Virus genome (UHGV): UHGV-1607510
From: a virus
Reading direction: 5' to 3' (one strand)
Length of the DNA: 19,146 nucleotides
The translations under genes were made by a program, and so were the position numbers. Positions 5,470 through 9,637 of the stretch are shown here, piece after piece. Each line of letters begins with the position of its first letter. The stretch's first letter is position 1. The notes under the pieces are model-generated. The model worked only from the letters and a program-made list of their open reading frames with translations, did no database searches and was not told where the DNA came from.

Positions 5470-6846
5470 TCATACGTCAGCCCCTTGTGCATATCGTCTG
5501 CCACGCGCAGCAGGTGCATTTGATGCTGTGCAAATCTGTCTGGCTTCATCCTGGTCACATGCAACAAAGTGTCCGTTACAGAACCGCTGGTAAACCGTAC
5601 CAAGCGAGCCAAAACGGTTTTTCGTCACAATGATTTCAGCAAATGGCGCGGCGCTACTGTTCTCGTCATATACCGCTTCCCGATAGAGCATGATGATTGA
5701 GTCTGCGTCCTGTTCAATGCTTCCTGAATCACGCAAATCTGCGTTTGTCGGGCGTTTGTTTGGTCGCTTCTCAACATCGCGCGAAAGCTGACTCAGGGAG
5801 ATAACGGGCGTTTTCAGGTCTTTCGCCATCGCCTTCAGGCTTCCGGAGATGTGAGCAATTGCGAGGTCGTTGCGGTCTGCTTTCGGCTTCTCAATCAGAC
5901 CAAGATAATCCACCATGATGAGTGACAGGTTTGGATTTTCCTGTTTGTGCCGTTCTGCGATTGAGCGTATTTCTTCGACCGATAACCGCGAGGCATCGAC
6001 TACCCATACATCCAAATCTGCAAGCTGACTCATGCCGTTAGCAACGCGCGCCCAGCCTTCGTCATCCATCGATGCAGGATTTCGCAGCACGCTAACCGAC
6101 ATCCTCCCGGCGTTGGCAATGCTTCGCTCTGCAATCTGCAATGCGCTCATTTCCATCGAGAAAATCAACACTCCGCGCCGGACGTCAGAACCAGGAATAA
6201 CGCGGCTTGCAACGCCTTCGGCAATCTTCAGCGCCAGCTCGGTTTTCCCCATACCAGGACGAGCAGCGATTATCACCAGGTCTTCTGCGTTCATCCCTCC
6301 GGTGATGGCGTCAAGTTCTTCGATTCCGGTCTTCATGGTATCTGACTCTTCTCCGTTCCTCAGACGCCTGTCAAGCGTGTCAGTGTAGTCAGTGATGATT
6401 TCCCCTAACCGTACAGGTTTAACCTCGTCACGGGGCTTTCTGATGGCTGAGAGACGCTTTACAAGCTCGTCCATCGCCTGACTCGATGTATCGATGGTTC
6501 CGCTCTGAATTGGTTCACGCATTTCATCCATGATTTCCAGCACCAGACGGCGGTGATAGTTATCCGCGACCATTCCGGCGTATCCCTTCAGGTTTGCGGC
6601 ACTCGGGCAGTTCTTACTGGTCATCAGGATTGACGTGAAATGCTCCTCTCCGCACGCCTCGGCAACCATCAGCGCGTCGATTAGGTTTCTGTTTCTCGCC
6701 TGCTTGCGGATAACCTCGAAGGCTTTCCGGTAGAGCGGAATTGAAAACGCTTCCGGCTCCAGCGTTGCCAGAACGTCGCTGGCGGTTGGTGTTAATCCAC
6801 CAATCAGCAGGCCACCGATAACGCTCGCTTCGATATCCTGTCTCAT
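5470..6846 (-). CDS. Replicative DNA helicase, DnaB family (P22 gene 12-like)
   Basis: 458-aa ORF with Walker A ARPGMGKT, Walker B-like LIMVDYLGL and a DnaB-like N-terminal domain. ATGA overlap with the O-like gene stop. Confidence 0.9.
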
Positions 6847-7664
6847 GCAATCCCCCTGTCTGCAAACTTCCCTTCCCGAACTCCCGTTAACGAATCTTCT
6901 CTCAGCAGGTAATCAAAATCGGCCGTCCAGCCCGTGTCGTTGTCTCCGAAGTAAAACGGCTTGGCCTGATGCACAAACGCCCTGACATACGCTCTGAAAC
7001 CGTCCACGTTTGGCGTTTTCAGTTGCGGGATGATTTTCTTCAGGCGGCGTTTGCGTTTCTCGTTGACCGCAACAGCATGTGGAAGTCTGTCACCGACTTC
7101 GGTGTTGTAGGCGTTCAGGAAGGATTCGTAGTCGATTCGTTCTGCCTTGCGACGTTCAGGTTTAACCTGCCCATCGCCGCCCCCGTTAGGGGGTAAGGGG
7201 GTATTTGTATTTATTGTCTTTTGTATATTGTCTTTTGTGTTTAGCTGACTTGGCTTATACCCATTAGCCGACTCGGCTAATGTTTTATTAGCTGTTTTAG
7301 CTAATGTTAAGCTGTCCTGGCTAATCCACTGAGAAACCACCTTGTTCACTCCGATTTTCACGCCATCAGCAATGAGGAATTTACGCTCGATAAGCTGGCG
7401 CTTGGCAGCGCAAACATGAGTGTGATGAATACCTGTCATGGCTGCTATCTGCGTGTTTGTGAGTCGATCCATCGGCTTATTGAATCCGTATGTCTTGCGC
7501 ATGATAGCGAGCATCACCTTCAGCTGCCGGACGGTTAAATCAGCCATCAGCAGACTGTCGGTAATCTCGTTAGCAACGCGCATGAAACCATCTTCGGTAT
7601 CTGCCACGCGATGCTCCACGACCTCCAGTTGAGGCCTGTAATCAGCTAACTTAACGACGCCCAT
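6843..7664 (-). CDS. Replication initiator, lambda O-like
   Basis: 273-aa ORF whose N-terminal domain ([32 protein letters not shown]) resembles the lambda O N-terminus (LTKRQFKVLLAILRKTYGWNKPMDRITDSQL). Iterons and an AT-rich tract are embedded mid-gene. Confidence 0.85.
7199..7240. other. AT-rich DNA-unwinding element of the replication origin
   Basis: gggtatttgtatttattgtcttttgtatattgtcttttgtgt lies immediately downstream (in gene direction) of the iterons, the same order as in ori-lambda. Confidence 0.5.
7241..7324. repeat. Origin iterons: four about 17-bp palindromic repeats TTAGC-N7-GCTAA inside the O-like gene
   Basis: Repeats at 7241-7257 (ttagctgacttggctta), 7264-7280 (ttagccgactcggctaa, perfect palindrome), 7288-7304 (ttagctgttttagctaa) and 7308-7324 (taagctgtcctggctaa), spaced about 20-24 bp apart. 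Confidence 0.7.
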
Positions 7665-7812
7665 GTTTCACTCCTGCTTTGGCTAGTCTGTAAACACCAA
7701 CAAGGCGCTCTGCGAACGCCCTGTTATTTGCTGCGGCTACCACTAATCCCTCAGGTGAATCAGGGTGTCGAATCTCTTCTTTTTCCTGGTATTTCTTACG
7801 ACGTTTTGTCAT
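7651..7812 (-). CDS. Hypothetical small basic protein (53 aa) between cII and the O-like gene
   Basis: ATG 7812..7810 preceded by AGGAG with a 5-nt spacer. Product [53 protein letters not shown]. Its 3' end overlaps the O-like start by 14 nt. Confidence 0.4.
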   Translation of the reverse strand: MTKRRKKYQEKEEIRHPDSPEGLVVAAANNRAFAERLVGVYRLAKAGVKHGRR

Positions 7813-7890
7813 AATTACTCCTGTGGATTGATCCAGTCTTTCTACATCAGGCCTCAAAACTGTTGCAGCAGTCTTGAGGCTTTTCTTTTG
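7810..7890 (+). ncRNA. oop-like antisense RNA overlapping the cII 3' end (promoter tentative)
   Basis: Plus-strand intrinsic terminator GCCTCAA-(16-nt loop with internal CTG/CAG pairing)-TTGAGGC followed by TTTTCTTTTG at 7851-7889, antisense to the last codons of cII. A candidate -10 CATAAT at 7810-7815 would give a 65-75 nt transcript, comparable to the 77-nt lambda OOP RNA. Confidence 0.5.
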
Positions 7891-8125
7891 TCAGCACCAT
7901 GGCTACTTTCTTTGCCAGCTCCGCTAATTCCTCGTCTTCAACACCCCACTCCAGCACAGCCAGAAGCATGGCCATCTTTGGGATAAAACTGTCTTTCCAT
8001 CGCGAAATTTGCGATTCATTAATCCCTAACGCGTCGGCAACCTTTCGCTGACCACGTACAGCAATTCGATTTAGGATGTTGCTTGTAATTGCATTCGCTT
8101 TCTTGCGAGTACTTGTAAGTTGCAT
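7847..8125 (-). CDS. cII: CII-like transcriptional activator
   Basis: 92-aa product MQLTSTRKKANAITSNILNRIAVRGQRKVADALGINESQISRWKDSFIPKMAMLLAVLEWGVEDEELAELAKKVA... from ATG 8125 (AAGGAAAT RBS upstream). The central region matches lambda CII (KSQISRWKRDWIPKFSMLLAVLEWGV). The track ORF is longer and runs through nutR. Confidence 0.8.
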   Translation of the reverse strand: MQLTSTRKKANAITSNILNRIAVRGQRKVADALGINESQISRWKDSFIPKMAMLLAVLEWGVEDEELAELAKKVAMVLTKEKPQDCCNSFEA

Positions 8126-8233: not shown

Positions 8234-8428
8234 CTATTTGTTTTTCTTGTTGCTTGGGAAAGGACGAACTTCCTCTCCAATCACACTGCCATCAGGCTTT
8301 ACCGTAACCATGATGTTACGGCCTGCCAGAATGGCCTTGCTGATAGCGCACTGGATTACACCAAAGTCACTGGCTGCTTTAGCCTGTCCATGGATTTTGG
8401 CGTAATCGGCAAGTGTCATTCGAATCAT
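8234..8428 (-). CDS. cro: Cro repressor (lambda-Cro fold)
   Basis: 64-aa product [64 protein letters not shown] from ATG 8428 (GGAGAG with a 5-nt spacer). Aligns with lambda Cro ([59 protein letters not shown]). Confidence 0.8.
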
Positions 8429-8457
8429 ATGCACTCTCCGTTATTAACCATGAACAA

Positions 8458-8534: not shown

Positions 8535-9251
8535 ATGGAAAATAAAAAATCACTGACGACAGAACAGCTGGAAGACGCTAAGCGGCTTAAGGCTTTGTAT
8601 GAGTCAAAAAAGAAAGAATTGGGAATAACCCAATACTCAATCGCTGATGAACTGGGTATCACCCAAGGAGCGGTAGGGCATTATCTTAATGGCAGAAATG
8701 CGCTAAACGTTGAGGTTGCATCTGGTTTTGCACGATTGTTGCAAGTCTCAATTGCTGATTTTAGCCAGTCAATTGCTGCCAAGGTTGCAGAACAGGCAGA
8801 AAGCCTTAAGAGCGATGCCAACGTAAGGTATGCAGGGGAATACAGAGCAGGAAAGAGGTATCCGGTGTTAAGCAGTATCCAGGCTGGCTCGTGGTGTGAA
8901 GCATGCGAACCATACACCATTAAAGACATAGATGTTTGGCTTGAGTCTGACGCGCATATTCAAGGTAATGCGTTCTGGCTTAAAGTGGAAGGTGATTCAA
9001 TGACGGCACCGGTTGGGTTAAGCATTCCAGAGGGAACATTCGTTCTTTTCGATACCGGAAGGGAGGCAATCAACGGCAGCTTGGTCATAGCAAAACTTTC
9101 TGACTCTAACGAAGCAACATTCAAGAAGCTGATAATCGACGGCGGAAATAAATACCTCAAGGGACTTAATCCTGCATGGCCTCTCGTGCCAATCAATGGA
9201 AACTGCAAGATTATAGGCGTTGCAATTGAGACAAAACTCAGACTGGTTTGA
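8535..9251 (+). CDS. cI: CI prophage repressor (HTH plus S24 LexA-like autopeptidase domain)
   Basis: 238-aa ORF with HTH (ITQYSIADELGITQGAVGHYLNG), Ala-Gly cleavage site (SIQAGSW), catalytic Ser (VEGDSMTAPVG) and Lys (ATFKKLI). Collinear with lambda CI (TQEQLEDARRLKAIYEKKK...). Confidence 0.9.
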   Translation: MENKKSLTTEQLEDAKRLKALYESKKKELGITQYSIADELGITQGAVGHYLNGRNALNVEVASGFARLLQVSIADFSQSIAAKVAEQAESLKSDANVRYAGEYRAGKRYPVLSSIQAGSWCEACEPYTIKDIDVWLESDAHIQGNAFWLKVEGDSMTAPVGLSIPEGTFVLFDTGREAINGSLVIAKLSDSNEATFKKLIIDGGNKYLKGLNPAWPLVPINGNCKIIGVAIETKLRLV

Positions 9252-9268
9252 TCACGCAAGGGGCGAAT

Positions 9269-9637
9269 ATGGTTGGAACCGCTATAGCAAGCTTTTTAGG
9301 GATGTTGGCAATATCGACAATTTACTGCTTAGCGCATGCTTTTATTGCGAAATCTCTATCAGAAAAAATAAGCCAGGCTTGGGCGCATAGATCAGCTCGT
9401 TTCATGATTCTGGTGATCATAGCAATACAAGGGATATCTGCATTTATCCTCTATGGATCAAGCTTATACCTATTGTATCAAGGCGCGACATTTACGCCTT
9501 ACACCAGTGATTACGGAACCCTATACGATGGTAGTGAAGACATCTCTATGGCTTGGATCGTCTTTGGTTTATCTATGGCCGTGTCTGTTGTAGCAGACAT
9601 CATTAAGGTAATTCTCGTCTTAACCTTCGCTGACTAA
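9269..9637 (+). CDS. Small integral membrane protein (122 aa, 3 predicted TM helices) downstream of cI
   Basis: ATG 9269 with AAGGGG RBS (5-nt spacer), 17 nt after the cI stop. Hydrophobic segments VGTAIASFLGMLAISTIYCLAHAFIA, FMILVIIAIQGISAFILYGSSLYLLY and AWIVFGLSMAVSVVADIIKVILVLTF. The track start (TTG at 9248) overlaps the cI stop and is less likely. Confidence 0.6.
   Translation: MVGTAIASFLGMLAISTIYCLAHAFIAKSLSEKISQAWAHRSARFMILVIIAIQGISAFILYGSSLYLLYQGATFTPYTSDYGTLYDGSEDISMAWIVFGLSMAVSVVADIIKVILVLTFAD

Follow-up and report, generated by a model that had tools for sequence, protein, structure and literature searches.

Among the oldest known antisense RNAs is oop, reportedly described in phage lambda by Krinke and Wulff in 1987 and 1990 as a 77-nt RNA of the pO/tO unit, and said to have been predicted in P22 by Backhaus and Petri in 1984. 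Both its P22-type form and its promoter block are already published. In lambda, and in lambda only, RNase III-dependent cleavage of the cII message and a lowering of CII activity are reported (PMC5869508, PMC3985674), and convergent firing of pO may also reduce pR transcription into the replication genes (PMC3985674). The lambda pO -10 element abuts the start codon of O, a pO- mutation falls within this hexamer (PMC3985674), and a LexA site has been cited 'within the oop-pO sequence' (PMC5869508). A conserved block comprising the pO -10 element and the oop 5' end was described by Hayes et al. (2012) in the lambdoid phages lambda, 434, 21, 933W, H-19B, HK022, HK97, Nil2, P22, ES18, HK620, ST64T, Sf6 and phi80 (PMC3349717). 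Regarding the P22 form, small-RNA sequencing of P22 infection lists a species "P22C-oop" with the sequence GAUUGAUCCAGUCUUUCUACAUCAGGCCUCAAAACUGUUCCCGCAGUCUUGAGGCUUUUCUUU (PMC13397905, Table 2), and OOP^BTP1 of the P22-like Salmonella prophage BTP1 has been annotated from RNA-seq (PMC7067206), its coordinates not being given in the supplements of that paper.

The window analysed here is the 19,146-nt stretch of virus genome UHGV-1607510, which very probably carries the pO-oop-tO unit of a lambdoid phage in its P22 form, a unit that would lower cII through the oop RNA. Both the kind of element and its type of sequence have been described before; the element is real, well conserved and ordinary. 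Its likeness to lambda OOP, put forward by a sequence-only reading of the window, is borne out by a true cII on the opposite strand, by a promoter and 5' block that matches the lambda pO/oop 5' end at 30 of 33 positions and the consensus block at all 33, and by the identity of positions 7826-7888 with P22C-oop at 61 of 63 positions.

The list of open reading frames, together with Pfam and PHROG family scans, identifies the window as a lambdoid immunity and replication region in reverse orientation. The cI repressor (8535-9251; Peptidase_S24 and HTH) is encoded on the + strand, and the - strand carries cro (8234-8434; Cro family), cII (7847-8125), a 53-aa ORF (ORF53, 7651-7812), an O-like replication initiator (6843-7664; Pfam Phage_rep_O) and a DnaB-like helicase (5470-6846; DnaB_C), the N peptide giving a further family-scan match. 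The cII gene, target of oop, is of the P22 c1 type (Pfam Phage_CII, E = 1.9e-44; 90% identity to P22 C1), and ORF53, located between oop and O, belongs to the HK97 gp53 family, PHROG 1331 matching residues 1-53 of its 53. The nearest database records are Stx2c- and Stx1a-converting phages (98.5% over 651 nt), followed by HK and mEp coliphages, Sf6, ES18 and P22.

Some further features were observed in these surroundings. Four repeats of ~22 nt with ~23-nt spacing (7240-7325), contained in the O-like gene, look like replication-origin iterons, and the matches at 7262-7294 that the consensus scan gave as "terminator-like" are these ori iterons within the O gene and not terminators. The 3' end of ORF53 and the start of the O-like gene overlap by 14 nt (7651-7664), which suggests, as judged from the gene arrangement, that translation of ORF53 and O may be coupled, and changes in ORF53 initiation at the pO -10 element could therefore propagate to O. 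In the 5' end of cII, TTGCTTGTAATTGC (TTGC-N6-TTGC; 8079-8092, + strand, towards cro and cI) corresponds to the site at which CII/C1 is expected to bind in the establishment promoter PRE, a site that is annotated in Sf6, HK620 and HK633; the TTGC-N6-TTGC motif by itself occurs at chance level in the window (3 found versus 1.6 expected). Directly 3' of cI, on the same strand and overlapping the cI stop, lies a 129-aa ORF (9248-9637, +) that matches PHROG 6534 (unknown function), gave no Pfam match in the family scan and appears by eye hydrophobic and membrane-like. In lambdoid prophages, this site directly 3' of cI is where exclusion genes expressed in the lysogen, for instance rexAB or sieB, are located.

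The conserved 33-bp lambdoid block is found at 7805-7837 as a 33/33 match to the published sequence ACTGGATCaATCcACAGGAGTaATTATGaCAAA, for which 0 matches are expected by chance, and many Stx, HK97 and lambda-like phages carry it with 100% identity. Within these positions are packed the pO -10 element, the first ~15 nt of oop and, on the opposite strand, the Shine-Dalgarno and start codon that serve the downstream gene. The extended -10 element of pO, TGtCATAAT (7807-7815, + strand), is identical to the TGTCATAAT of lambda at the O start, with the TG at 7807-7808 and, at 7810-7815, the CATAAT hexamer that had been noticed earlier as a plausible -10. Its CAT (7810-7812), read on the other strand, gives the ATG of the 53-aa ORF, so that this start codon lies inside the -10 element; the promoter overlaps the ribosome-binding site and start of this ORF, as the sequence-only reading had proposed, and as lambda pO does at O (PMC3985674). 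This disposition is general: among 58 distinct loci, 51 have a (C/T)ATAAT hexamer that overlaps the start codon of the downstream gene, whichever gene that is, and TG precedes it in 23 of those 51. Part of the conservation of the hexamer could be due to translation of the downstream gene, for which it supplies both spacer and start codon.

The -35 region is less marked. A candidate weak -35 was read from the sequence at 7786-7792 on the + strand, either as CTGGTA (18-bp spacing) or as TGGTAT (17 bp), with 2-3 of 6 matches to TTGACA and the TGn extension present at the -10. It does not resemble the TTGAGT of lambda because the upstream module is here an HK97 gp53-type ORF, a module other than those found upstream in lambda or in P22. 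The consensus promoter scan of the window did not call pO, due to this weak -35. In sigma-70 promoters, an extended -10 (TGn) can compensate for a poor -35, and we infer the activity and strength of pO in this exact module context.

One and the same cII/oop module is joined, in every case at the 33-bp block, to three upstream modules (loci L013-L092), namely the lambda O gene with its TTGAGT -35, the HK97 gp53-type ORF present in the window, and P22 orf48, which indicates that the -35 varies with the neighbouring module. These junction variants were provided by an IMG/VR scan with a single cII protein, which retrieved only close relatives (at least 90% identity) and was of no help for covariation. 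HK633 displays the reciprocal combination, a gp53-type ORF joined to lambda-type oop and cII, and the Sf6 record annotates a 'boundary sequence' at the site of the block. Judging from these arrangements, the 33-bp block fits the role of a recombination 'boundary sequence' or mosaic junction.

A CTG-N10-CAG palindrome (CTGTGGATTGATCCAG; 7821-7836, + strand), also read from the sequence, spans the predicted oop start and is a possible LexA box. It occurs at the equal position in lambda and in 28 of the 51 loci, and by hand count its 20-mer context agrees with the LexA consensus TACTGTATATATATACAGTA at 13 of 20 positions in the window and at 15 of 20 in the lambda equivalent. This motif may be the LexA site cited for lambda pO.

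Transcription from pO would yield a predicted oop RNA of ~63-67 nt on the + strand (7823-7889), with its 5' end at G7823 by analogy to lambda or at G7826 according to the P22 RNA-seq, and its 3' end in the U-tract. The exact 5' end is uncertain, since the end observed in P22 lies 3 nt downstream of the lambda-analogous start. The 67-nt candidate (7823-7889) adopts a two-hairpin fold of -25.8 kcal/mol, versus -13.2 +/- 2.7 kcal/mol in dinucleotide shuffles (z = -4.6, 0/200). Since cII stops at 7847-7849, an RNA with its 3' end at ~7888-7889 covers the stop codon together with ~13 codons (42-43 nt). The overlap of about the last 10 cII codons claimed by the sequence-only reading therefore applies to the terminator hairpin alone, and falls short for the RNA.

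This terminator hairpin, equivalent to tO, lies at 7851-7880 on the + strand, is encoded within the last 10 codons of cII, and is supported by folding, covariation and a recoding control. The intrinsic terminator proposed earlier opposite cII is present, with arms GCCTCAA (7851-7857) and TTGAGGC (7874-7880), and the hairpin proves longer than had been claimed, since pairing resumes past a single A.C mismatch and adds 4-5 pairs (ACUG(U)/(G)CAGU) to the stem, for a total of 12-14 bp. It is followed by the U-tract TTTTCTTTT (7881-7889), which is present on the + strand only and is complementary to Lys-Glu-Lys codons of cII. A consensus terminator scan of the window failed to call the hairpin at 7851-7880, as the mismatch, beyond which comes a 4-nt loop, interrupts its stem; this negative, like that for pO, comes from the rules by which the scanner works. 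Folded from the window sequence itself, the hairpin has much the same stability on either strand (-17.7 vs -19.2 kcal/mol), and its strand assignment consequently rests on the U-tract and on homology.

Selection on this structure was evaluated by comparison, with cII loci drawn from IMG/VR and from one genome per species using a 4-sequence cII alignment as query. The distinct P22-type cII 3' ends come from phages and from Enterobacterales, including Escherichia, Erwinia, Kalamiella, Rahnella, Serratia, Tatumella, Pantoea, Enterobacter, Siccibacter, Lonsdalea, Symbiopectobacterium and others, and all of them (35/35) show a hairpin of 11-15 bp followed by a U-tract. In a gap-free, codon-register alignment the majority-register stem is 79.9% paired, versus 65.2 +/- 1.5 in column shuffles (0/500), and the covariation score is 0.386, versus 0.165 in shuffles (0/500), with both sides changed in 7 of the 11 stem pairs. 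Controls slid out of register were paired at 34-58%, the +1 slide being the highest because the subtype of the window and P22 has one extra nucleotide in the 3' arm.

The hairpin is moreover kept while the peptide encoded opposite to it varies, as illustrated by the cII C-termini PQDCCNSFEA, APKNGEFFEA, APSCVNSFEA, PQTSGNSFRA and RPAVGSSLDA. When the cII peptide of the window was recoded synonymously (n = 5000), just 0.1% of the recodings were as stable as the native antisense fold (-18.6 kcal/mol native, versus -8.3 +/- 2.8 kcal/mol in recodings). This control, together with the turnover of the peptide with the stem retained, rules out peptide coding as the sole cause of the hairpin. Regarding strand, 30 of the 35 variants form a hairpin of greater stability on the oop strand than on the cII strand (means of -18.6 vs -14.0 kcal/mol; Wilcoxon p ~1e-6, to be taken as indicative only since the rows are phylogenetically related), due to the G.U pairs of the oop strand becoming C.A mismatches on the other. 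The U-tract lies over KEK or NKK codons at equal cII alignment columns in P22-type and lambda-type genes, indicating that the terminators of both types occupy homologous positions. Together, the comparative results support selection acting on the oop RNA structure, as judged from sequence variation. Folding and covariation argue for this structure in the window, where the transcript is predicted; among its relatives, a transcript of this type is shown in P22 and BTP1 only.

Some cII-oop sequences appeared under unexpected organism labels. An identical segment was present in 16 assemblies of unrelated organisms (Ruminococcus, Pseudoxanthomonas, Kitasatospora, Bradyrhizobium, Shewanella, Vibrio and others; loci L148-L164); it equals lambda over the ~140 nt examined and several of the contigs have ~1x coverage, these segments being almost certainly lambda DNA contamination and not prophages. 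Metagenome-assembled genomes labelled Segatella copri and Bacillota bacterium (L094 and L095) contain contigs whose cII protein is 99% and 89% identical to that of the window and whose cII 3'-end/oop sequences equal those of lambdoid phage types from E. coli; these contigs are probably binning errors.

Other explanations can be considered for the same features. If pO were silent here, the 33-bp block would represent the ribosome-binding site and start of ORF53 plus a recombination junction, the hairpin would simply travel with the cII allele, and no oop RNA would be made. Such an explanation is favoured by the weak, non-lambda -35 and the consensus scan without a promoter, as well as by the block being a known mosaic boundary and by AGGAG-N5-ATG on the other strand constituting a good translation start. 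Nonetheless, a promoter with an extended -10 (TGn) can usually do without a good -35, and P22 and BTP1 still yield the RNA with a -35 that is also non-lambda. Moreover, a Shine-Dalgarno to ATG spacer needs no (C/T)ATAAT for translation alone, yet 51 of 58 loci have the hexamer, and hitch-hiking with cII leaves unexplained the covariation of the terminator and the selection on the oop strand. A silent pO is, on this balance, improbable.

Alternatively, the hairpin might serve the cII sense mRNA, in its stability or processing, or might end longer + strand transcripts, in both cases with no short oop RNA being produced. The sense hairpin of the window is as stable as the antisense one, as this possibility would have it, but over the set of 35 variants the sense strand forms a markedly weaker stem, because G.U pairs turn into C.A there, and the U-tract exists on the + strand only. 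This G.U asymmetry led to the rejection, at family level, of a hairpin for the cII sense strand. The P22 RNA-seq further detects a discrete 63-nt species ending in that same U-tract, and the consensus scan predicts no other + strand promoter nearby from which longer transcripts could come. This second explanation is thus very improbable, and a P22-type pO-oop-tO unit is the reading retained in what follows.

By homology, the pO-oop-tO unit would operate from a weak, probably constitutive sigma-70 promoter pO (TGtCATAAT, 7807-7815), starting a + strand RNA near G7823-G7826. Termination at the hairpin and U-tract (7851-7889) would then release an RNA of 63-67 nt in which a small stem-loop at the 5' end precedes the strong stem-loop of the terminator. 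Along its whole length the sequence of this RNA is complementary to the pR transcript, over a stretch that begins in the cII-ORF53 spacer and takes in the last ~13 codons of cII. As in lambda, pairing of both RNAs may create a substrate for RNase III and destabilise the cII message, with less CII being made and lytic growth being favoured; RNase III dependence of the P22-type oop would follow from the same analogy. Likewise by analogy to lambda, pO firing against pR may damp pR transcription into the 53-aa ORF, O and ori. On a further and improbable reading, pO and oop could also set the translation or transcription of the ORF53-O replication operon, since the oop 5' end abuts the Shine-Dalgarno of ORF53 and the ORF53 stop overlaps the O start, and the CTG-N10-CAG palindrome could bring them under LexA/SOS control. 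The resulting wider role, in which the 33-bp site would link DNA damage, the choice between lysis and lysogeny and the initiation of replication, in addition to serving as a junction for module exchange, is a doubtful proposition.

In phage and prophage records oop is rarely annotated. It is labelled in 1 of the 9 GenBank/RefSeq phage records compared (HK633), and in the GenBank record of phage L a terminator is marked on the oop strand at the corresponding site. Rfam gave no match in the window at the gathering threshold, nor in 7700-8000 at E <= 1; the oop sequences of lambda and P22 themselves likewise lack a match, which indicates that Rfam has no OOP model and that the negative result for the window is uninformative. 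The comparative set collected here, with 35 distinct P22-type terminators showing covariation and a lambda-type set, could seed an Rfam family. In Stx-converting phages, the closest relatives of the window, oop bears on the lysis-lysogeny decision and, indirectly, on toxin release.

Regarding the lambda-type OOP family (lambda, 434, 21 and HK633), the RNA of the window does not align along the 77-mer, only the first ~15 nt being shared. The lambda and window sequences diverge after GATCCAGT, and the RNA body past ~15 nt is not alignable because it is tied to a different cII allele (48% protein identity). The two RNAs also differ in length (77 nt in lambda versus 63-67 nt predicted here), in their overlap with cII (55 versus 42-43 nt), in the 5' stem, which is weaker in the window, and in the downstream gene, which is O in lambda and the 53-aa ORF, between oop and O, in the window. 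On the contrary, they have in common the TGTCATAAT element with its TG extension, the -10 lying over the start codon of the downstream gene, the 7-nt spacing from the hexamer to the start G, the first ~15 nt, the two-hairpin layout, the U-tract over equal Lys codons of cII and the antisense disposition to the cII 3' end. OOP^BTP1 resembles the window in its position, 5' block and -10 element, and departs from it in its terminator, which is of the phage L type (GCCUCGAAGAA...UUCUUCGGGGC) and differs from the stem found here by fully compensated changes. P22 differs from the window in its upstream (-35) module, orf48 in place of the HK97 gp53-type 53-aa ORF, and in two bases at the apex of the terminator hairpin, where substitutions affect a loop base and the closing wobble pair (UUGCAG vs UUCCCG), and its oop is alike in the -10 element, the start region, the terminator and the position opposite the 3' end of c1, a gene of cII type.
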